Below are positions 46 to 15,220 of a stretch of DNA of 16,186 bases, one piece after another. The stretch's first letter is position 1. Every line of letters starts with the position of its first letter. Source of the DNA: an uncultured delta proteobacterium. Lineage in GTDB: Bacteria > Desulfobacterota > Binatia > Binatales > Binataceae. The stretch is from assembly GCA_963765675.1 (NCBI GenBank), contig CAVXXK010000002.1:1-16186 (forward strand), in the 5' to 3' direction. Under the pieces are notes generated by a model. That model ran no database searches and was not told the DNA's origin. It worked only from the letters and a program-made list of their open reading frames with translations. A program made the position numbers and the translations under genes.

Positions 46-91
46 TGGTGGGCCGTTGGAGACTCGAACTCCAGACCCGCTGATTAAGAGT
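46..91 (-). tRNA. 3' fragment of tRNA-Lys(CTT), anticodon loop to CCA; probable att scar
   Basis: Reverse complement reads ACTCTTAATCAGCGGGTCTGGAGTTCGAGTCTCCAACGGCCCACCA: CTT anticodon loop, T arm with TTCGA, acceptor strand and CCA. No D arm or 5' acceptor strand upstream. Confidence 0.88.
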
Positions 92-245
92 GAGTCGTGG
101 GGCGACCACCATCGATCACGACGCAACAACATCCGCGAGAAATGGGCGTTTTGTTCGAATCGAGGTCGGTGGTGATCGGTCCTTTTCGGTACTGATCGGC
201 AGTCGTTTGGCAGCGATCTGAGCGGTGCTCGATCTCTCCTGACCT

Positions 246-304
246 ATGCCGGAATTGGCGTAACGTTCAACCGGCACGCGGTTACCCACGGAGGATTTTA
301 AGTC
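246..304 (-). pseudogene. Degenerate 3' fragment of tRNA-Leu(TAA); old att scar
   Basis: Minus strand GACTTAAAATCCTCCGTGGGTAACCGCGTGCCGGTTGAAC gives a TAA anticodon loop, a long variable arm and a decayed T arm. Shares GAGGATTTTAAGTC with the 4200-4257 fragment. Confidence 0.65.
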
Positions 305-362
305 GTTTAACTATAACAAAAACGCTTTGTTTTATTGGCTTTATTTCCATCAAATGTGAAAG

Positions 363-383
363 TGTGTAAGTTTCTGTGTAAGT
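363..383 (+). repeat. Direct repeat pair TGTGTAAGT, candidate integrase arm-type sites
   Basis: TGTGTAAGT at 363-371 and 375-383, about 60 bp inside the Leu scar in AT-rich DNA. Function inferred from position. Confidence 0.45.
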
Positions 384-601
384 ATTGAAAAAAGCCCAAC
401 AATATCGGGCATCTTCACCTCTGTCGTTTTGAAGGATTTTCGTCGCATCCGTAATTTCCGATTGTTTTTCGGTCTTTTTTTGGGGGGCAGTTTCGTGGCA
501 TTCCGGTCATACTCCGGTCAGAACGGGCGCGGTGGCTGAAGAGCTTCTCGAGTCTCTGCTCAAGCCGGAACGGCGGGCCGTGGGCGGCGTCGGCATCGGA
601 T

Positions 602-3600
602 TTAGTCGCCAGCGCCCGCCTGCTTGTTGCTCATAAGCGAGCGCAGACCAAACGCAAGATCCTGCTCGGTGAGAACATCAGGAGATGCGTCACTCTCGGC
701 CGCCAACCGCCGAGCTTCAGCGCGTAACGCAAACTCCAGAAATGTCCTGACGTCTCTGCCATTCGACCAGTTTGGCGCGCCCGTTAAGGTTTCGAAAATA
801 TTTGTCAGTTGCTGGCCGGCCTCCGTGCTGAGTTCAAGTTTCTCGTCGACGATCATTCGCTTGAAAATCTCTGAACATTCCAGAGCGGTGTAGTCCGGAA
901 ACTGGATCAAGTTTGTGAAGCGAGATCGAAGGCCCGGATTGGAATTCAGGAAGTTGCGCATTTCTTTGTCGTAGCCGGCGGCGATCACGACCAGCCTGCC
1001 GCGATTGTCTTCCATGAACTTCAGAAGAGTTTCAATCGCCTCTCTGCCGAAGTCGCTGGCTCCGATATCATTTCCAACAGCCAGACTGTATGCCTCATCT
1101 ATGAAAAGGGTGCCGCCTAGCGCACGTTCCAGAGCCTCGCGGGTTTTAATGGCCGTTTGCCCTATGTAGCCCGCCACCAATGATCCCCGGTCAACTTCGA
1201 TGACCTGATCGCTCGGAAGATAACCAGCCTCTTTGAAGATTCGTCCCATGATGCGGGCAACGGTGGTTTTGCCGGTCCCCGGACTGCCCATCATCACGAA
1301 ATAAGGCTGCAATGCATCACGCGGATCTCGGCCCCGCAGTTTGGCAAGTCTGATCAGGGCCTCATATTCACGGACCGTTTCCTTGATCGCATCAAGCCCG
1401 ATCAGCCGATTCAACTCATCGGCGCTTGTTCGCACTTCAACAGTCGGTCCAAGAAGGTCGGGCCGTTCGAGTCGAATCAGAGTCTCTTTCACCAGAGCCG
1501 AGCCGGAACGTCGCAGCGTATCGAGGCGCGCTGCCTGGCGCCGAATGGCTTGCTCGAGAAGATTCCGCACCGCGCGTGCGTTACCGAAATACTTGCCGAC
1601 GCGTTCGCGCGCTAGCACGTCTACAGCCGCGGCAAGATCATCTTCGGAGATCGAATAGCTCCTTTCGCTGGCCATCGCGGCGAGAATGCTCTTGAGCTGA
1701 TCGTTCGAATAGTCTTCGAAGACGAGGCGTTCTCCGAACCTGCTCTTGAATCCCGGATTAGTCTCCAATAGCGCATCCAGTCGATCCGGATAGCCCGCCA
1801 GGATTACGACTAAATCGTCTCGATGGTCCTCCATGAACTTGAGAAGGGTGTCGATACACTCCTGCCCGAACCAATCTTGCTCGTCGTGCTTGAGCGAATA
1901 GGCCTCGTCTATGAACAAGACGCCACCCAAGCTCCCTTTCAAAACTTTCAAGGTTTTTTCGGCCGTCTGGCCCAAGAAACCAGCGACAAGAGTGCTGCGG
2001 TCAGCCTCAACCAAATGTCCTTTCGTCAGATAGCCATACTCGCGCAGCATCTGCGCATAGACGCGAGCGACCGTAGTTTTGCCCGTTCCCGGATTACCAA
2101 CGAACACGGCGTGCAGCGAGAGTCTCGAGACGAGGAGCCCAGCCGTCTTTCTTTCCGCATTGATTGCCAACAAACTCCGGATTTCGTTGAGCGATTGCTT
2201 GACCGAGTCGAGCCCTACCATGTCGGCGAGAGCGGGTGTGTCGGCTTCCGATTGGGCCGACGAACTGGCAACCGGAGGCGATTGCGTCTCCGTTTCATCC
2301 GCATTCTCGTCAGTCTGTGCACCTTCCTCGGTATCTGCCAAATGCCATATTGCGATCGCTCCCGATTCTCGGTGGTGAGCGATTTGGAAGGACGACCCGG
2401 ACGCTCCGAGCTGTCGCTGTGCCTGTCGAGCAACCCGCCGTGCTTCTCGCAGCTGGGCGTCGAACACACCGTCCCATATGTCCTGACGTCCTTTCAGCAG
2501 CTTGACTCGTTCCCTCTTGTTCCGCCCAGCTTCAACCATCTGGGCATCGATCTCTGAAAGATGCTTATAAACAGAGTCACCCGGATGGCAGATCATTAAG
2601 AGCTTACTTCCTCCGATAGGCACCCTCTTTAACTCGTCTGCTGTTAACTGAACGACGTCTGCACCTGTGCAGTCGCCGGGCACTTTGAGCACCAACGGGC
2701 CATCAGCGACGACTACAAATCCGCCGGTGTCGAGCGGCGTATATCGAGTGGTGTCGATGCCAGCCGTCTTACGGTTCTTAAGAAACCGTGACTTATCGAG
2801 ATCATCTTCCCGCTCGCGCCTTCCGATGGAAACTGTGTAATAATACCAAGCGGCAAGATCACGAATTGACATCAAGGTCTCGTCATTGAGGAGCTGGGGC
2901 AAACTGGGTGCTCTATCGAGTACTACGGTGTGAGCGCTTCTAGCTTGTTCCTTTGCCTCGTCTATGAAATCCAAAAGCCGAGAGTGAAGGCCAACTAGTG
3001 CGTTCGCTACTGAATGAAATATCTCTTCTAGGAAATTTCCTCCATCCCTTCGACGCACTTCATACAAAGCGGTGTCTATGGACTCAACTCCGCGCTCATG
3101 AACACGCTCAAGCGTACACCGCTCGAGCTGCCTAAGTGTTTCTTCGGAAATTGCGCGCTGGCGCTCACTAGGGTTTTGCAAGCGCATGGAGAACTCTTTA
3201 TCATCCTTCGCCAGTTGGTCGAGTTTAGGTTGTCCCCATGCCGCCCGCGATTGTTTCCATTCTTTAACTCGCTGCTTCGGCCAGATGAGCCAGGGTCGGA
3301 CACCTATAAAGAACAACTGTGGATGGATGTCGTAGCCGCGCACAATCTTAAGTGACGACAGTACGGCATCCAGCGCTCCAACCGCCATAGAGGTCGCGTT
3401 CCGCAATTGTTCGAGATTCTGGAGAGATGAATATTGCGACGCAAAAGCAATAGTATCTAAGACGTCTTGGCAATCCTCGATAACTCCCGCAGCGAAGGCC
3501 GCGTCTAGTATCCTGACAGCGTACTCCAACGCATCGGATGTAGCAGTTTTGTAAATTTCGTCCCGGCCGGTGAGGAAGGCGGTCGGGTCGTCAAGCGATG

Positions 3601-3619
3601 CGAGTAAGCGACGGAACAC
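602..3619 (-). CDS. Tandem AAA+ ATPase, SpoVK/CbbX/EccA-like, with unrecognised ~430-aa N-terminal region
   Basis: Two AAA modules: HAVFVGNPGTGKTTVAR / LFIDEAYSL / GFKSRF / FGNARAVRN, and MGSPGTGKTTVAR / LFIDEAYSL / NPGLRSRF / SNGRDVR. An acidic linker precedes module 1. Start is uncertain because the frame stays open about 40 codons upstream of the GTG. Confidence 0.92.
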   Translation of the reverse strand: MFRRLLASLDDPTAFLTGRDEIYKTATSDALEYAVRILDAAFAAGVIEDCQDVLDTIAFASQYSSLQNLEQLRNATSMAVGALDAVLSSLKIVRGYDIHPQLFFIGVRPWLIWPKQRVKEWKQSRAAWGQPKLDQLAKDDKEFSMRLQNPSERQRAISEETLRQLERCTLERVHERGVESIDTALYEVRRRDGGNFLEEIFHSVANALVGLHSRLLDFIDEAKEQARSAHTVVLDRAPSLPQLLNDETLMSIRDLAAWYYYTVSIGRREREDDLDKSRFLKNRKTAGIDTTRYTPLDTGGFVVVADGPLVLKVPGDCTGADVVQLTADELKRVPIGGSKLLMICHPGDSVYKHLSEIDAQMVEAGRNKRERVKLLKGRQDIWDGVFDAQLREARRVARQAQRQLGASGSSFQIAHHRESGAIAIWHLADTEEGAQTDENADETETQSPPVASSSAQSEADTPALADMVGLDSVKQSLNEIRSLLAINAERKTAGLLVSRLSLHAVFVGNPGTGKTTVARVYAQMLREYGYLTKGHLVEADRSTLVAGFLGQTAEKTLKVLKGSLGGVLFIDEAYSLKHDEQDWFGQECIDTLLKFMEDHRDDLVVILAGYPDRLDALLETNPGFKSRFGERLVFEDYSNDQLKSILAAMASERSYSISEDDLAAAVDVLARERVGKYFGNARAVRNLLEQAIRRQAARLDTLRRSGSALVKETLIRLERPDLLGPTVEVRTSADELNRLIGLDAIKETVREYEALIRLAKLRGRDPRDALQPYFVMMGSPGTGKTTVARIMGRIFKEAGYLPSDQVIEVDRGSLVAGYIGQTAIKTREALERALGGTLFIDEAYSLAVGNDIGASDFGREAIETLLKFMEDNRGRLVVIAAGYDKEMRNFLNSNPGLRSRFTNLIQFPDYTALECSEIFKRMIVDEKLELSTEAGQQLTNIFETLTGAPNWSNGRDVRTFLEFALRAEARRLAAESDASPDVLTEQDLAFGLRSLMSNKQAGAGD

Positions 3620-3982
3620 TTCGCGGCTCTCGTCCGCAATAGTCGGCGAAAATCTGTAAACTGGAATTTGCGTTTTAACTCTCCGATTGTCGCTCCTCGT
3701 ATAGATCGGGCAGTCAGTTCGCGCAAGGTTGGACGTCAGTTATGGTCCACGATCTTTCCAACGGTGCCAAGAGAAGCCAAGGTTGCGTCTGATGGCTTCA
3801 TCGCCGTCTGGAGCAGCGTAGCTGATACGCGGTCAGAAAAATAACGGGCGCCCTGCGGCGCTGACAGGGAGTGTGGGTTGGCGGGCATGTGCCGCCCATC
3901 AATTGTCTGAGATGCGAACGGTGCCATCCTCGGCGCCGGGGTGGCCGCATGGTGTCCCGCTTTTTCCCGGCTCAAGGAAGCT

Positions 3983-4036
3983 TGGTGCGGGCGGAGGGAC
4001 TCGAACCCTCACGAGCCGTTAAGCTCAACGGATTTT
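3983..4036 (-). tRNA. 3' exon of an intron-containing tRNA-Leu(U^AA); 5' exon absent
   Basis: Minus strand AAAATCCGTTGAGCTTAACGGCTCGTGAGGGTTCGAGTCCCTCCGCCCGCACCA begins right after the first anticodon base, with long variable arm, T arm and CCA. Confidence 0.88.
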
Positions 4037-4174
4037 CATACCGTCTACGGCTTTCGCCGCCCGGACACGGCGCTTTGACACGGCCGCGTCAGGTTTGCGG
4101 TCTGGACTATCCCTTCACCGTCCCCCGGAAAATCCGGGGCTTAGGTGCTGCCCGTCTAGTCTCTACACCTTCCC
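4037..4174 (-). ncRNA. 3' portion of a group I self-splicing intron (bacterial tRNA type), 5'-truncated
   Basis: Minus strand shows GAAGGTGTAGAGACTAGACGGG (4172-4151; J6/7, P7, P3'), P8 CACC...GGTG with a CCCCGGA/TCCGGGG hairpin, GAAGGGATAGTCC (4116-4104; J8/7, P7'), a CGGC-GAAA-GCCG GNRA hairpin (4059-4048) and a terminal G at 4037 abutting the exon. P1-P5 not found. Confidence 0.88.
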
Positions 4175-4199
4175 AGCTAGTTTGCTCGACGAAGTGAAA

Positions 4200-4257
4200 T
4201 GCCGGGGGCGGGACTCGAACCCGCACGGAACTTTCGCTCCAGAGGATTTTAAGTCCC
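4200..4257 (-). tRNA. Intron-less 3' fragment of tRNA-Leu(TAA); probable att scar
   Basis: Minus strand GGGACTTAAAATCCTCTGGAGCGAAAGTTCCGTGCGGGTTCGAGTCCCGCCCCCGGCA. No CCA and no contiguous 5' half. Confidence 0.85.
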
Positions 4258-4703
4258 TTAAGTTTACCCCCGCCGCCGCTTTCTCGCGCGCCGTCATCGC
4301 CGAATCGCGCCGCAAATCGGGCATCGACTGCCGCTTCGCTGCCAGTTTCGCCTCAACCCCCCGCTCGATAGAGACTCCCGGCTGAAGGATTCCGCGCCAA
4401 AGTGCCGGACTATTTCGCCTTCAAAGTCGCTCGTGCTGACGCGCAGTCAGCGGATCGAGCGAAAGCGGCACCACTTGCCGGAGACCCAGTGCAGACTCAG
4501 CCTTTTTCCCAGCAGCATTCTTCGGTGTTGGCAAGGAACGCCAAAGTCCCCTCCGAAAAATCGAAACAGAGAGAATCTTGCCAAATGGCCCCACATCGTA
4601 GTCAATGGACATTTCTCTGTGGGACTTTGGCCTCAGAAAACGCCGTGCACGCGGGCATTTCGCGACGCAGACCGCAATTTTCTCTGCTTCGGAGACTCGG
4701 GTG

Positions 4704-4790
4704 CGGAGGGGGTGGGATTCGAACCCACGAGGGACTTTCATCCCTGCCGGTTTTCAAGACCGGTGCCTTCAACCGCTCGGCCACCCCTCC
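4704..4790 (-). tRNA. tRNA-Ser(TGA), complete cloverleaf, CCA not encoded
   Basis: Acceptor GGAGGGG/CCCCTCC with discriminator G; D arm GCC...GGC; anticodon arm CCGGT-CTTGAAA-ACCGG; variable arm AGGGAT-GAAA-GTCCCT; T arm GTGGG-TTCGAAT-CCCAC. Confidence 0.96.
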
Positions 4791-4800
4791 AAGCCTTATA

Positions 4801-4813
4801 AATCAAGCACTTA
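4801..4813 (+). promoter_or_regulatory. IHF-binding consensus in att arm
   Basis: AATCAAGCACTTA matches WATCAANNNNTTR exactly. It lies between the tRNA and the arm-type repeats and overlaps the integrase stop codon. Confidence 0.6.
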
Positions 4814-6065
4814 CGCGATTCCGAGCCGCCGCGACAGGCTTTGACCTTCCACTTTTCTTCCACTTCCGCCGGGTTCCGGAAGAAACGCCCAGAGCTTGCT
4901 CAGCCAACCGGTCCGCCGCTCCCGTCTCCGCGTCCTTGAAAAAGTGCGAATACACCCGGAGCGTGATCGCCGGCGACGCGTGGCCTAAGCGATGCTGTAC
5001 CTCTGTGATTGGTGCGCCGGCCGCGATCATTGCGCTCGCGCACGAATGGCGGAGCGAGTGGAAAGTGACCTGCAGCAGCTCAGCGCGCCGTAGGGCCGGA
5101 TGGAGCCCGCATTTAAGAATCCGATCGCGACACGCCGGCTGCCCGTCGTCACCCGGGAACACCAAATCGAGATCTGATGGCGAGCATTGAATCTTCCACG
5201 CTTTGAGCATCGAGACCATCGCAGGTGCGATCGTGATCCAGCGCGTCCCCGCCTCCGTCTTAGGTGGGTAAAAGCGTGGCCGTACAGGTTCCTTGGGATC
5301 GACACGCGCCCGTGACATAGTCCGCTCGACGTGTATCTTACCGCGACTGCCATCAGCGGCATCGAACTCGATATTGCCCCATTGGAGCGCCAGCAGCTCG
5401 CCCGAACGCATACCCGTCACAAACGCCATCGTAAACAGCGTCCGGTAATAACCCGGCGTTGCGGCATCCAGCATCAAGCGCACCTGGCTCGGGCTAAGCA
5501 CGCTGTCCGGTTTTACGCTGTCGCCATCGCGCGCACCGTCCTCGCCCGGTACGAGCTCGCGCGTCGCCTTGAACGCGGGCTCGATGTCAGCAACGGGGTT
5601 GCTCACCGCTTGATGACGTCGAATCGCAGCACGAAACACCGCGCCGGCGATCCGAACGATCGTATTGATCGTCCGCGGTGCATACTCTTGCGCGCGCAAA
5701 TCGTTGCGAAGCGATTCAATCATTCCAACACTGATATGATTCAGCCGCAGGGCGCCGAACCGCGGTAGTAGGTGCTTGTCCAGGCGCGATCGCAAGTCCG
5801 CCACGTGAGACGCGCGACGATCGGTCTTCGACGCGTACCAGGTCTCGGCCGCGGCCTTGAACGTCGGAATCTCCTCAGGCGCAACATATTCGCCACGGCG
5901 AACTTTGACTTGCGTGTCAGCGCGGTGTTGCTCCGCTTTCCCCTTCGTCTTGAACTGCAGCATACGGCGCGGCCCCTTGACGCCCAGCGGCCGATAATCC
6001 AGTCGCCAAGGGCACTTACAATCGCCGCCCGCGCAATCGGTTCGGTGGATACGTTTGATCGCCAC
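4803..6065 (-). CDS. int: Tyrosine recombinase / phage integrase (~420 aa)
   Basis: Catalytic set R (TGMRSGELLAL), K (PPKT), HxxR (FHSLRH), LGH and Y (RVYSH). Start placed at GTG 6065, which has a GGAGG RBS and overlaps the upstream stop (TAGTG). Confidence 0.96.
   Translation of the reverse strand: MAIKRIHRTDCAGGDCKCPWRLDYRPLGVKGPRRMLQFKTKGKAEQHRADTQVKVRRGEYVAPEEIPTFKAAAETWYASKTDRRASHVADLRSRLDKHLLPRFGALRLNHISVGMIESLRNDLRAQEYAPRTINTIVRIAGAVFRAAIRRHQAVSNPVADIEPAFKATRELVPGEDGARDGDSVKPDSVLSPSQVRLMLDAATPGYYRTLFTMAFVTGMRSGELLALQWGNIEFDAADGSRGKIHVERTMSRARVDPKEPVRPRFYPPKTEAGTRWITIAPAMVSMLKAWKIQCSPSDLDLVFPGDDGQPACRDRILKCGLHPALRRAELLQVTFHSLRHSCASAMIAAGAPITEVQHRLGHASPAITLRVYSHFFKDAETGAADRLAEQALGVSSGTRRKWKKSGRSKPVAAARNRVSA
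4846..4865 (+). repeat. Arm-type direct repeats CTTCCACTT x2
   Basis: Copies at 4846-4854 and 4857-4865 inside the integrase 3' end. The same core and spacing recur at 16077/16088. Confidence 0.6.
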
Positions 6066-6250
6066 TATCGTTCCCTCCTCTCGTCCTGTGCCACGAGCGT
6101 CAACAGCAACCGCGCCGCGCTCTCGCGGATCGCCATCTGGCCTGTCTCCCACCGCGCAACAGATACGCGCGAAACACCGATCCGCTGCGCTAGCTCAGCC
6201 TGCGTGAGTCCCATGCGTTTACGAAGTCGCTGTATTTCCTTGCCAGTCAT
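6065..6250 (-). CDS. Xre/Cro-family HTH regulator (61 aa)
   Basis: IQRLRKRMGLTQAELAQRIGVSRVSVARWETG is a canonical HTH_3 pattern. Stop overlaps the int start. Confidence 0.92.
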   Translation of the reverse strand: MTGKEIQRLRKRMGLTQAELAQRIGVSRVSVARWETGQMAIRESAARLLLTLVAQDERRER

Positions 6251-7288: not shown

Positions 7289-7457
7289 GCGCACAGTATT
7301 AACCGATAAGCGCGTGCCGTCAACGCCAGTAGCGAAAAACACATACGTAAAAGTTAGGTACGCGAAACTGAGGTATTATATTCGCGTGTGGAATCGAATT
7401 GTAAAAGTCGCGCGCGCGGATCAGGCACGCCGCCGGTGTGCCTCTATATTTCCCGTG

Positions 7458-7797
7458 GTGAGCCGAGTTGTAAATCAGGTGAGTGGTGGTGCGGATGGCA
7501 GGTCTTCCGATCCTTCGTGGGTTGATCAACTTCCGACGGAACAAATTCCGAAGGCGCTGGTTCAATTGGCCGGGTTGCACTGCCGACTAGCGGCGCGCTT
7601 GGCTATGGCGCCGCAGCCCGGTGTCGCATCCGCGGACGCCCTGGTTGAACGCGCCCACGCTCGCAAAGCGGTTGGGCGTTCCCGAGTCACACGTTCGCAT
7701 GCTGCAGCGCGCAGGCACGATCCCGAGCGTACGGGTCGGCGCGAAATATATTCGTTTCAGTATCGCAGCAGTCGCGGCGGCGTTGAAGGCGGTTTGA
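7458..7797 (+). CDS. Excisionase-like HTH_17 protein, one frameshift at ~7643-7644
   Basis: Removing one G joins ...IPKALVQLAGLHCRLAARL...DAL to LNAPTLAKRLGVPESHVRMLQRAGTIPSVRVGAKYIRF...LKAV* (TGA 7795-7797). The HTH part is not in the ORF track. Start is 7458 or 7479. Confidence 0.72.
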
Positions 7798-7802
7798 CGC
7801 GG

Positions 7803-9295
7803 ATGGGCAAAGTGACCGACATCGCGCGCGCCGCAGCGCTACCAAAACGAGAGCCTCCACAGCCGCTCGTCCGCGAAGTTCCGCCGGGCGAACCGTTCCC
7901 GACTGAGGCACTACCTGGACTGTTGGGCGACACGGTTCGTGCTGCTTGCGAGCGCACTCAGGCTCCTCTGTCGCTGTGTGCGCAGTCTCTTATGGCAACC
8001 ACGGCGCTGGTGGTTCAAGCGCAGGGAAACGTTGAACTGCCGACCGGCGCCGTGAAACCGATCAGCGAATATTTCGGAACCATTGCAGCGACCGGCGAAC
8101 GCAAGACCTCGGCCGATGACTGGGTGTCGCAGGCGATCAAGGAACGCGAGCTAGAGCTCGATATAACCTATCGCATCGAGCTTGTTCTGTATCAGAATCG
8201 ACTGGCGGCCTATGAGCGCCAGCGACATCAGGTTCTCTCAAACCGAAAGAGCAATCCGGACCTTTCATCGAAAGAGCAGGCGCTTGCCAAACTCGGCCCC
8301 CCTCCGACGCCGCCGATGAGCCCTTTGCTCACGGTTCCTGAACCGACATTTGAGGGCTTGACGCGATTTCTTAAGGATGGGCAGCCGAGTGTTGGGCTTT
8401 TCTCGACAGAAGGTGGGCAGTTTATCGGCGGTCATGCCATGAGCGAGGAGAACCGCCTCAAGACGGCCGCAGGCTTTTCGCGACTATGGGACGACGGCGA
8501 AGCTCGTCGATCACGGCAAGGTGAAGGCACCTACGTCGTTAGAGGGCGCCGCGTCTCAATGCATCTGCAGGTTCAGCCGGACGCTGCCGCAAGGTTCTTT
8601 GCGGATCTGGTCCTACAGGATCAGGGCCTGCTCTCGCGCTTTCTGACGGTCTGGCCTGTCAGCACTATAGGTTACCGCAAATCACGCAAACCCAGCGATC
8701 AGAGCGCGGCAATTCTTGACCAGTATCGCCAGCGGGCGCTTGCGATTCTCCGATCGCAGCCACCTCTTATAGGTAATGAACTCCGGCGCCGACTTTGAGG
8801 CTCAACCCTGGCGCGACCGAGTTATGGGTGCAGTTCTACGATTGGACGGAAGCTCAGCTTCGCCCTGGCGGTCCGCTCGAGCCCGCGACGGGCTTAGCCA
8901 ACAAGGCACCCGAACACGCAACGCGACTCGCGGCGATTCTGACTCTGTTTGTGGACCTGGATGCGCGGGAAATCGACGAGGCAAAGATGCTGAACGGCAT
9001 CACGCTGGCGCGGTTCTACCTGAGCGAAGCAATCCGAATCGTGAGTCTCACAAAAGTTGATCCGGATCTCGTGCTCGCGAAAAGGCTTGTGGCGTGGCTG
9101 CGCGATTCGTGGAAGGAACCCAACGGCTTAATCTCGCTGCCCGACATTTATCAGCGGTCGTTGAACGCGATCGGGGACAAGGCCACCGCGTCGAGAATTG
9201 TTGACATCTTAGCTGGGCATGGCTGGCTGCAGCCGCTCGGTCCCGATGAAGTGAACGGAATACGCCGACAGCAAGTGTGGAGGATTGTGCGATGA
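7803..9295 (+). CDS. DUF3987/YfjI-family putative replication protein (helicase-like), frameshift at ~8785
   Basis: Motifs FPTEALP, TIAATGERKTSAD (P-loop-like), EPTFEGL, LWDDG, QVQP, QGLLSRFL. Continues in the 8795-9295 frame with KAPEHATRLAAIL and a wHTH-like C-terminus. Confidence 0.85.
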
Positions 9296-14740: not shown

Positions 14741-14775
14741 TGGCCCGGCACCTTCCCGAGGGGGGGCGCGGGTCA
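14741..14775. terminator. GC-rich imperfect hairpin between convergent genes
   Basis: TGGCCCG...CGGGTCA outer stem and CCTTCC/GGGGGG inner stem; no clear U tract. Confidence 0.3.
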
Positions 14776-15012
14776 GCACCGGGCCGGATCAGTGGGAGGA
14801 CGAATTGACGTTACCGGTGCTCGCCTGCCGCCCAGCGCGATGGTGCTCTCGCTCATCCAGCGTTCAATCGCGGCGCGATCGAATCGCCACAGATCGCCGA
14901 CCCGCATGGCGGGAATCTGCGATGTGCTGGCTGATCGGTAGATCGAACTGACGTTGCAACGCCACGCCGCCGCCAGTTCAGCGACCGTCAGAAGCTCGCC
15001 CAGCCTTTCCAT
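14773..15012 (-). CDS. Excisionase-like HTH_17 DNA-binding protein (79 aa)
   Basis: LLTVAELAAAWRCNVSSIYRSASTSQIPAMRVGDLWRFDRAAIERW. Start placed at ATG 15012. Confidence 0.85.
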   Translation of the reverse strand: MERLGELLTVAELAAAWRCNVSSIYRSASTSQIPAMRVGDLWRFDRAAIERWMSESTIALGGRRAPVTSIRPPTDPARC

Positions 15013-15116
15013 ACATGCCGCTCCCGCCGCCGGCGATGCCTGGTTCTCAACACCGCTCCCGCCGCGATTCCTGCGCCAAAGCTGATCACCGCGATCGCGA
15101 TCAAAACGGGATCCAT
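14988..15116 (-). CDS. Small single-pass membrane protein (42 aa)
   Basis: MDPVLIAIAVISFGAGIAAGAVL followed by RTRHRRRRER; overlaps both neighbours. Confidence 0.5.
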   Translation of the reverse strand: MDPVLIAIAVISFGAGIAAGAVLRTRHRRRRERHVWKGWASF

Positions 15117-15220
15117 CGCAACCCCATCCGACGCGCCGTAACGAGCATCTTCTCGAGCCGACGAATTTCCGCCCGATCCCGTCGCCGTTGCGCACGGCGC
15201 CGATTGCTGGTTCGCCTCAT
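15101..15220 (-). CDS. Small Arg-rich peptide (39 aa)
   Basis: MRRTSNRRRAQRRRDRAEIRRLEKMLVTARRMGLRWIPF; ATGA overlap with the upstream stop. Confidence 0.4.
   Translation of the reverse strand: MRRTSNRRRAQRRRDRAEIRRLEKMLVTARRMGLRWIPF

Follow-up and report, generated by a model that had tools for sequence, protein, structure and literature searches.

How does the 3' half of a group I intron, still joined to the 3' exon of a tRNA-Leu(UAA) gene, come to lie 25 nt behind the 3' half of a second, intron-less gene of the same kind, and does it have any function there? The piece that raises this question lies on the minus strand of a stretch of 16,186 nucleotides, here called the window, which is the whole of contig C2 (16 kb) of G000, a metagenome-assembled genome of an uncultured member of the Binataceae (16 contigs, 4.5 Mb, 95.6% complete, 4.3% contamination). 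Below, intron-containing tRNA-Leu(UAA) genes are called type I and intron-less ones type II. The original prediction, made from the letters of the window, had recognised P7, the 3' strand of P3, P8, P9 and the terminal G joined to a leucine 3' exon at the U^AA position, and a different, intron-less Leu-TAA 3' half about 25 bp upstream. Both descriptions hold: all of these elements were found on the minus strand, the intron-less half occupies 4257-4200 and is separated from the intron by a spacer of 25 nt, and the half group I intron on its tRNA-Leu 3' exon is confirmed as real. P1-P5 and the 5' exon are missing, as had been said, with the correction that the 3' strand of P6 is also present and the break falls in P6/P6a. 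The parts, read along the minus strand, are the following (G065 is a genome of another genus that is discussed below):

4200..4257, minus strand: 3' half of a type II gene, comprising anticodon loop, long variable arm, T arm, 3' strand of the acceptor and discriminator
4175..4199, minus strand: 25-nt spacer between the type II half and the intron, conserved in G065
4037..4174, minus strand: 3' part of the intron (P6 3' strand, J6/7, P7, P3 3' strand, P8, P9, terminal G), delimited by alignment to complete introns and their Rfam alignment
4166-4152, minus strand: R element with the 5' strand of P7
4147-4116, minus strand: P8 hairpin
4115-4104, minus strand: J8/7 and the 3' strand of P7 (S element)
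4103-4037, minus strand: P9 region up to the terminal G
3983..4036, minus strand: type I 3' exon, from A35 to the encoded CCA, starting with AAAATCC at 4036
3794..3982, minus strand: conserved downstream flank of type I (blastn), with a candidate hairpin and T-run near 3950-3970

The 3' exon starts at 4036 just as it does in eight complete UAA-type genes, and the 3' junction at the intron site U34^A35, G/AAAATCC, is identical to that of the complete genes, whose 5' exon ends in ...GGACTT. The R and S elements pair as P7 with P8 between them, and the terminal G stands at the 3' splice site, so far as a 3' part can display a group I core. What is missing is P1, P2, the 5' strand of P3, P4, P5, the 5' strand of P6 and the 5' exon, and the piece is a fragment that has neither a 5' splice site with P1 nor a core complete in both strands of P3, P4-P6 and P7. 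By blastn, similarity continues from the intron through the downstream flank (87.5% across 3794-4173 against G062 and 85% across 3820-4178 against G132). Two plus-strand ORFs overlap the piece, and neither matched any family.

Identification as a group I intron does not come from a direct covariance-model match. The original prediction had looked to an Infernal search with the Rfam models, and RF00028, run on the window in three ways, including one with the sequence cut at 4182 to allow a truncated match, found nothing at E<=10; the whole of G000 likewise gave 0 matches at E<=10, and the piece does not reach the gathering score of 50 bits. This does not refute a half intron, since a global model cannot score half an intron, and complete relatives of the piece do match. 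In a blastn search with 193 nt, full-length matches of 84-93% identity were obtained in G010, G014 (two places) and G040, and in G008 a contig end matched at 98% over 90 nt; in all four genomes the matched stretch is the 3' part of a complete intron. At four loci these complete homologous introns score 39.9-48.7 bits with RF00028 (E 5e-10 to 2e-7), and in a further scan at the gathering threshold two of seven loci passed (51.6 and 50.8 against 50 bits). We regard the homology to complete introns, which by alignment begins in P6/P6a, as the decisive argument for the predicted group I identity of the piece; presumably these introns belong to subgroup IC3. With introns allowed, ARAGORN reported a class II tRNA with an anticodon-loop intron of 241-269 nt at all 12 complete loci, giving the anticodon as taa in two of the eight UAA-type genes and placing the border 1-2 nt off in the other six. 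The same setting returned no intron-containing tRNA in the window or at the corresponding relic of G065, and on the whole of G000 it made dozens of spurious intron calls and reported no Leu(UAA). Unless introns were allowed, ARAGORN missed every one of the intron-containing genes.

The neighbouring type II half is a different gene from the one that the intron belongs to, with a different variable arm and a different acceptor strand from those of the intron-bearing tRNA's 3' exon. It looks intact and encodes no CCA, and neither a D arm nor a true 5' strand lies upstream of it; an Rfam tRNA match at 4200-4273 (31.7 bits) passes over the D arm. The half shares 98% identity with the complete gene in G005 and, over 60 nt, 100% with that in G065, and only 87% with the copy that G000 itself has at the end of contig C5.

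Which of the two genes belongs to the host? In Binataceae, type II occupies a fixed chromosomal locus, and type I is interrupted at U34^A35 by a group I intron of about 240-270 nt. Behind two protocatechuate dioxygenase genes and Meth_synt_2, G000 has the 5' half of a type II gene, where contig C14 ends; at the orthologous locus G005 has a complete type II gene, and G010, an unpublished genome on which part of the locus synteny and one of the complete introns are based, has a type II 5' half with the core, which breaks off behind the anticodon loop and is followed after 1.4 kb by a complete type I gene. G014 has, at its own locus, a type II 5' half, 70 nt, a complete type I gene, 5.9 kb of cargo (HipA/HTH, an IS630-type transposase and a Big_2 protein), a P arm, the core and a type II 3' half. 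Type II halves also flank a type I gene in G051 (10.9 kb apart) and G108 (10.5 kb), and in G062 and G104 the attR lies about 64 kb and about 54 kb away. Judged by this synteny, the loci show the intron-less gene to be the chromosomal target and the intron-containing gene to be the apparent cargo of islands. The original prediction had expected the opposite, a host gene cured of its intron by integration; the polarity is reversed, with the intron-less gene in the host (G000, G005) and the intron gene inside the insert (G010).

These islands, of 6 to about 64 kb, are seated in the anticodon loop of type II. Since the common core is only about 12 nt long, attL is a bare 5' half, and attR a P arm followed by a bare 3' half; the attR P arms of the relatives align with one another over more than 45 nt. 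Beside attL the layout is a tyrosine integrase and then the complete type I gene: the 1.1-1.4 kb between core and type I encodes a protein of 378-433 aa in G062, G104, G091 and the second copy of G108, and these proteins are 78-91% identical to one another. Both of the two that were scanned matched the PHROG_1 integrase (E 1e-31), and Pfam gave Phage_int_SAM_5 (E 2e-5 to 2e-4), while a sequence search of the PDB with the island integrase profile found no match. Some islands carry restriction, PIN, SNF2, AIPR and ArdC-type genes and others metabolic genes, and no phage structural genes were seen in their annotated parts. With so short a core, the host gene is destroyed by integration, and its replacement comes with the island. 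In four of the five genomes checked (G014, G051, G062 and G104) no intact type II gene was found, the other full-length matches there being tRNA-Leu(CAA), and G108 retains an intact type II; the hosts of such islands would thus depend on the island's tRNA. Type I sequence is present in at least 16 of 165 genomes of the family, and in nine of 151 evenly sampled genomes of the class, where it falls in three of 19 families.

The window itself carries such an island, the parts of which are listed here from the intron side to the far end:

4256..4266, minus strand: P-arm remnant TAAACTTAAGG, 11 nt, directly upstream of the core
4244..4255, minus strand: att core GACTTAAAATCC, formed by the anticodon loop and the start of the 3' stem, common to attL, attR and the intact genes of relatives
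602..3619, minus strand: the only island gene, for a 1005-aa protein with two AAA+ ATPase domains (Pfam AAA E 3e-33, AAA_lid_6)
305..430, minus strand: full-length P arm, aligning with the attR P arms of G014, G051, G062 and G065
291..304, minus strand: second copy of the att core, forming direct repeat D3 with 4242-4266
247..290, minus strand: decayed type II 3' half, the displaced host half that is no longer of use

Core and 3' half thus occur as a direct repeat, at 4255-4200 and again at 304-247, and the P arm at 305-430 aligns with the attR of the integrase-bearing element of G062. With an att site at each end, 4255->291 belongs to the same family of islands. Its near end consists, in order, of the core, the intact type II 3' half, 25 nt, and type I from P6 onwards, and its far end of the P arm, the core and the decayed type II 3' half, with a changed variable arm, an insertion of 4 nt in the T loop and an altered acceptor strand. 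The suggestion in the original prediction that the locus is debris of integrative-element traffic at tRNA-Leu(UAA), with the intron-less half as an att-site half, agrees with this arrangement. The 1005-aa protein also corresponds to PHROG 4339, of unknown function, and no integrase lies between the att copies at 291 and 4255. An integrase elsewhere in the window (4803-6152) was considered as the island's own and rejected: it lies outside the att pair, abuts a complete second tRNA-Ser, and is unrelated to the integrase of the island family (hhalign probability 5%, though the catalytic motifs align; no tblastx match).

Upstream of the near core, the 11-nt remnant is identical to the sequence found in the attR of G014 and G051, where a P arm of more than 100 nt ends with it next to the core; in the window the similarity breaks off after these 11 nt and unrelated G+C-rich DNA follows. 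The 11 nt at 4256-4266 would be all that is left of the P arm of a later insertion into the rebuilt tRNA, an insertion that has itself been truncated and that would have taken the 5' half of the rebuilt tRNA, which is absent from C2, off the contig. A tblastx comparison of the window with the loci of 15 relatives found no common protein genes outside the tRNA region, so the integrase, DUF3987 and AAA genes of the window have no synteny in these relatives.

If a 5' half of the intron gene existed elsewhere in G000, the piece could be one half of a split intron, in which a separate transcript with the 5' exon and P1-P6 would be spliced in trans to make tRNA-Leu(UAA), as the original prediction had also considered. 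The sequence of the catalytic 3' part and of the 3' exon is intact, and trans-splicing group I introns do occur in organelles (PMC10027690). In G000, which at 95.6% completeness leaves room for a 5' half in unassembled DNA, neither a 5' exon nor a 5' intron half was found, by blastn with the loci of five relatives, by RF00028 or by R1, a covariance model that was built from eight 5' halves: the best R1 match in G000 had 14.7 bits (E 3.9) and fell on tRNA-Leu(CAA), R1 had no match in G065 or G005, and on both G014 copies, as a positive control, it scored 160-165 bits. The genome-wide search thus yielded no separately encoded 5' exon with P1-P5, in G000 or in G065, which is 96% complete in four contigs. 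The host's own tRNA-Leu(UAA), which the original prediction had suggested checking for an intron, is an intron-less type II gene, spread over C14 and C5: the end of C14 and the start of C5 are at adjacent bases in the anticodon stem-loop, and the gene that spans them is otherwise complete. ARAGORN found no other tRNA-Leu(UAA) in the assembly. A search for overlaps between the contig ends of G000 found none, so that C2 cannot be placed between C14 and C5. With a redundant intact gene and no partner in either genome, we consider splicing in trans very improbable.

The decisive observation on whether the junction is real came from G065. This genome, of another genus, has the same junction, with 93% identity over 273 nt across it (19 substitutions), and also the far P arm, with 91% identity over 138 nt (G065:C2:1326151-1326289 against the P arm at 305-430), 16.9 kb away. 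The cargo in between is unrelated to that of the window (a P-type ATPase, methyltransferases, AcrB fragments and others) and includes no integrase. At least three integrase-less islands follow one another here behind a complete type II gene, and this one is the second; each of them ends in a P arm, the core and a 3' half, and behind the tRNA halves of the other islands of the array lies unrelated DNA. A pattern scan of contigs for the junction returned one record, at the same place as in G065, and no further instance; the junction is thus found in two genomes only, G000 and G065.

One might suspect a chimera, in which a complete intron-containing gene was joined to an att site during assembly, the more so as several contigs of G000 terminate within tRNA genes and no contig from four public soil and peat runs bridges 4174-4200. 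In those runs 3986-4174 and 4200-4256 are covered separately, and the contigs over 3986-4174 diverge past 4174, as would be expected of complete introns from other strains. The runs speak neither for nor against the junction in this organism, as the 20 best public runs share only 0.13-0.21 of the sampled words and the organism is not in the four that were tested (0.19-0.21). The presence of the same junction in G065, a genome of another genus assembled independently, shows that it is not a misassembly, the outcome that the original prediction had named as fatal to it, and we regard a chimera as the least probable of all the explanations considered here, close to negligible.

Does the shared breakpoint, then, reflect a preferred site? 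The original prediction offered, among its mechanisms, an element that recombines inside the intron, and a mobile element might indeed use a fixed site in P6 for attachment, in which case the piece would be the displaced part of an intron-containing host gene. The breakpoint is identical in two genera, and a stable target would be offered by the conserved core immediately downstream. In other truncated copies of type I, however, the break lies elsewhere, at P3'/P8 in G058 (an unpublished genome, which provides this one alternative breakpoint and one member of the CAA subgroup, where C-G replaces U.G at the splice site) and 14 nt before the end of the intron in G011, and the P6 break is therefore not a fixed recombination site. 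No orphan 5' exon with a 5' intron half was seen, and among the matches listed from 165 genomes of the family the only copies without a 3' part are those cut by a contig end. The two copies share the far end of the island as well as the junction, which argues for a single origin followed by spread, and the upstream neighbour is half of another tRNA gene rather than the arm of an element. Attachment within P6 thus appears quite unlikely. A crossover in the anticodon loop with an intron-less attP, the other mechanism put forward at the outset, does not account for the piece either, because it would leave a whole intron, and here the intron starts in P6.

A further question is whether the half intron is retained for some purpose. 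At the end of an island it might serve as a P' arm with binding sites for the integrase or host factors, or as a signal for 3' processing or termination of the rebuilt type II tRNA, whose transcript would run into it. The piece is 93-94% identical to the working introns of G062, G014a and G010 and to the relic of G065, in a matrix that covers seven of 14 sequences (an end-motif filter dropped the other seven), and R, S, P8 and the terminal G are unchanged; it lies 25 nt behind a tRNA 3' end, and the flank at 3794-3982 is conserved too. Among those seven sequences the relic is as similar to the working copies as these are to one another, which points either to a recent event or to a constraint that is not visible here. 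Recent spread, however, would account for the similarity equally well. Moreover, in the relic of G065 one P8 pair is broken (GGTG has become GGCG opposite CACC), and the other islands of G065 have unrelated DNA behind their tRNA halves, which speaks against a general role for what lies there. A retained function is in our view improbable, though less so than the other alternatives.

We thus consider it likely, and with some confidence, that the piece is a non-functional fossil, namely the 3' two-fifths of a predicted self-splicing intron with its 3' exon, once part of a tRNA-Leu(UAA) that was the cargo of an island. The lower G+C content of C2 (58.9% compared with about 62%) and the contamination of 4.3%, with which C2 might stem from another cell line than C14 and C5, were counted against this explanation. 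A full element has the order P arm, core, integrase, type I. By deletion or imprecise excision, the sequence that immediately follows a type II 3' half would have been fused to the intron's middle, with loss of the integrase, the 5' exon and P1-P6, and a single illegitimate join between the position behind the type II 3' half and P6a of the intron would have been sufficient. The spacer is consistent with such a join: its right part can be aligned gap-free with the long P6a in the introns of G014 and G062 (17/25 and 14/25 identities, counted manually on the sequences), and its left part resembles the trailers of type II genes. We dropped a simpler version, in which the spacer is entirely host trailer and a single imprecise excision took place, because the spacer also aligns to P6a. 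Two routes could lead to the fusion, either the imprecise excision of an integrated full element, or a deletion that followed the integration of a rebuilding island upstream of a full element. G058 contains one complete type I gene behind which a type II 3' half follows directly; no intermediate forms between full element and derivative were found.

In the derivative, the integrase, the 5' exon and P1-P6 would have been swapped for a type II 3' half and a few nucleotides. The attP of such an island would rebuild the host tRNA on integration, and since the host tRNA is rebuilt, the cargo tRNA would become dispensable. The derivative then would have spread, presumably mobilised in trans by the integrases of full elements, as the presence of both island ends around other cargo in G065 suggests.

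How does this compare with systems already known? Group I introns occupy the tRNA-Leu(UAA) of cyanobacteria and plastids (PMC4476775). The Binataceae introns have the same insertion point, R, S, P7, P8 and terminal G, whereas the piece in the window is a 3' part only, and in Binataceae the introns are patchy within the family and lie inside inserted DNA rather than in a resident gene. The lone 3' intron part with its 3' exon also resembles one half of a split trans-splicing group I intron, but no partner was found and a redundant intact tRNA gene exists.

The closest parallel for the full islands is the tRNA-dependent lysogeny of actinobacteriophages (Guerrero-Bustamante and Hatfull, mBio 2024, PMC10865867), in which a tyrosine integrase acts at an attB within a tRNA gene of the host, the common core measures about 10 bp, the tRNA is not rebuilt, and the element carries an isotype-matched tRNA. 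The layout of the full Binataceae islands is exactly the same. Unlike these phages, the islands, from 6 to about 64 kb long, have cargo of defence type and metabolic cargo, and their complementing tRNA has a group I intron that is predicted to be self-splicing. A short core together with an unrebuilt tRNA is found in G014, G010, G062, G104 and G091, and an intact same-isotype tRNA is complete on the element at 12 loci of relatives; the window island has neither, and is a derivative that has left this mode, in that it would rebuild the tRNA while its cargo tRNA is cut short.

As an island, the derivative resembles other known elements more closely. Genomic islands with a tRNA gene on one side and a direct repeat of that gene's 3' part on the other are well known, as is their tandem accretion, and in the field of Streptococcus ICEs integrase-less, cis-mobilizable derivatives are known as CIMEs. 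Like a CIME, 4255->291 lacks an integrase and has a conserved P arm and, at each end, a tRNA 3' half, intact at one and decayed at the other, and the three such islands that stand in a row behind a complete tRNA in G065 are like tandem accretion. Tandems of a phage and an ICE have been reported (PMC13651849). Unlike CIMEs, the window island has a near end that starts with half a ribozyme gene, and it is this half gene that records descent from an element that disrupts and replaces. The context of the piece thus joins two known kinds of integration, att-flanked islands in tRNA genes and disruption with complementation, and what is unusual is the group I intron in the complementing tRNA. A literature search found no publication that combines Binatota with the intron, and none that combines tmrB with a group I intron.

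Beyond the window, close relatives of type I with the same acceptor and anticodon stems are found on conjugative plasmids of Bradyrhizobium, and an intron-containing relative with different exon stems stands next to a resistance gene in more than 1,200 plasmid records from enterobacteria and Acinetobacter. A wider reading, which we put forward tentatively and as a possibility short of probable, is that the intron-containing tRNA-Leu(UAA) is a portable replacement part: islands would knock out the host gene and supply a copy that is predicted to splice itself, the host would become dependent on it, and the introns would spread between phyla as passengers and not by homing. The relic would then represent an escape from this arrangement by capture of the host 3' half.

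For annotation, halves of this kind give rise to false or missed tRNA calls, as the Rfam tRNA match at 4200-4273 illustrates. The significance of the piece, itself presumably inert, is that of a footprint of two opposite lifestyles of islands, one that destroys the host tRNA gene and brings a spare and one that rebuilds it; the relic would record the switch from the first to the second. It also leads to a family of islands in an uncultured soil phylum that carry a spare tRNA with a predicted self-splicing intron, and it would extend the logic of disruption and complementation, described for actinobacteriophages in 2024, to large non-phage islands. Finally, it bears on whether the group I introns of tRNA-Leu are ancient residents or travellers, since such islands may provide testable vehicles for their lateral spread.

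The window carries a tyrosine integrase, a second tRNA gene for serine and several other features, listed here by window position.

Further features of the window
46-96, minus strand: tRNA-Lys(CUU), 3' half only, anticodon loop through encoded CCA
4704-4790, minus strand: second tRNA-Ser(UGA), complete (62 bits)
4803-6152, minus strand: tyrosine integrase of 449 aa (Pfam E 5.5e-22, PHROG_1 E 3e-67)
7314-8798 and 8795-9295, plus strand: two overlapping ORFs of a DUF3987 helicase/primase-type gene
14773-15195, minus strand: HTH_17 excisionase-like ORF

The integrase is transcribed towards the tRNA-Ser(UGA), whose 5' end follows the integrase stop codon after 12 nt, and the tRNA itself shares 91% identity with the contig C4 copy (179500-179590) in the same genome. 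Taken together, the two genes look like the integrase-then-attP order of a different element, one that targets tRNA-Ser; the other end of this putative element is absent from the contig. The two DUF3987 ORFs, over which the gene is split, span profile positions 1-264 and 280-363; the gene either has a frameshift or is broken. The contig end is 46 nt away from the tRNA-Lys(CUU) 3' half, which has no 5' half ahead of it and is probably a further att remnant. This half has a counterpart of 89% identity in the unpublished genome of a relative, G058 (locus L017, 6606-6651).

Two other relatives, G014 (G014:C1:1368300-1375000, locus L032) and G051 (contigs C61 and C18), hold additional orphan halves from the 3' side of the intron-less tRNA-Leu(UAA). 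These halves, with 79-92% identity, are dispersed across these island-bearing genomes and are probably older att remnants. Two unusual matches to the intron-containing gene were observed in the class sample. In G188 (C133:4637-4863) a gene resembling it has no match in its middle, the matches being limited to query positions 1-116 and 277-353, separated by 32 nt, and this gene could have a shortened intron. In G232 (C12:845916-845992) an isolated match covers the first 75 nt alone, i.e. the 5' exon and the start of the intron, and could be an orphan 5' piece.

Unannotated intron-containing tRNA-Leu or tRNA-Leu-like genes were also found on plasmids.

Plasmid-borne genes
CP142529.1 (E. coli plasmid, L035), about 27336-27630: tRNA-Leu(UAA)-like gene, group I intron present
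CP094621.1 (Bradyrhizobium plasmid, L036), 160676-160925: tRNA-Leu(UAA), group I intron of 204 nt

Across its initial 250 nt the first shares 60-80% identity with the Binataceae gene, and its intron contains R and S elements. The Rfam group I intron model RF00028 gave no match to it at E<=0.001, and ARAGORN reported a 219 nt intron with a wrongly called anticodon. The gene occurs in a total of 1269 plasmid records (Escherichia 485, Klebsiella 357, Salmonella 114, Acinetobacter 78, plus others), with an "AAA family ATPase" and aac(3)-IId as neighbours; a literature search for tmrB together with a group I intron found no publication. The Bradyrhizobium gene scores 45 bits with RF00028, is called with anticodon taa by ARAGORN, and has acceptor and anticodon stems identical to those of the Binataceae intron-containing gene. 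It resides on 317-kb conjugative plasmids, namely CP094621.1 and three sister plasmids.

In one subgroup of intron-containing genes (L023 in G091, L019 and L024 in G108, and L025 in the unpublished G058), the 5' exon closes with ...GGACTC and the anticodon stem is GUGGA/UCCAC. The spliced anticodon would be CAA rather than UAA, and in P1 a C-G pair would replace the usual U.G wobble at the 5' splice site. A group I intron in a tRNA-Leu(CAA) is not known to have been described.

Finally, the assembly of the genome that contains the window is itself interrupted at the target gene: in the anticodon stem-loop of this genome's own tRNA-Leu(UAA), the end of contig C14 and the start of C5 are neighbouring bases inside the att core, with zero overlap between the two contigs. 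The contig ends concerned are the right ends of C14 and C5, and also C3, C13 and C15. Several contigs besides C14 and C5 terminate within tRNA genes, which suggests that such ends are assembly-graph breaks where the sampled cells differ in their integrated islands.
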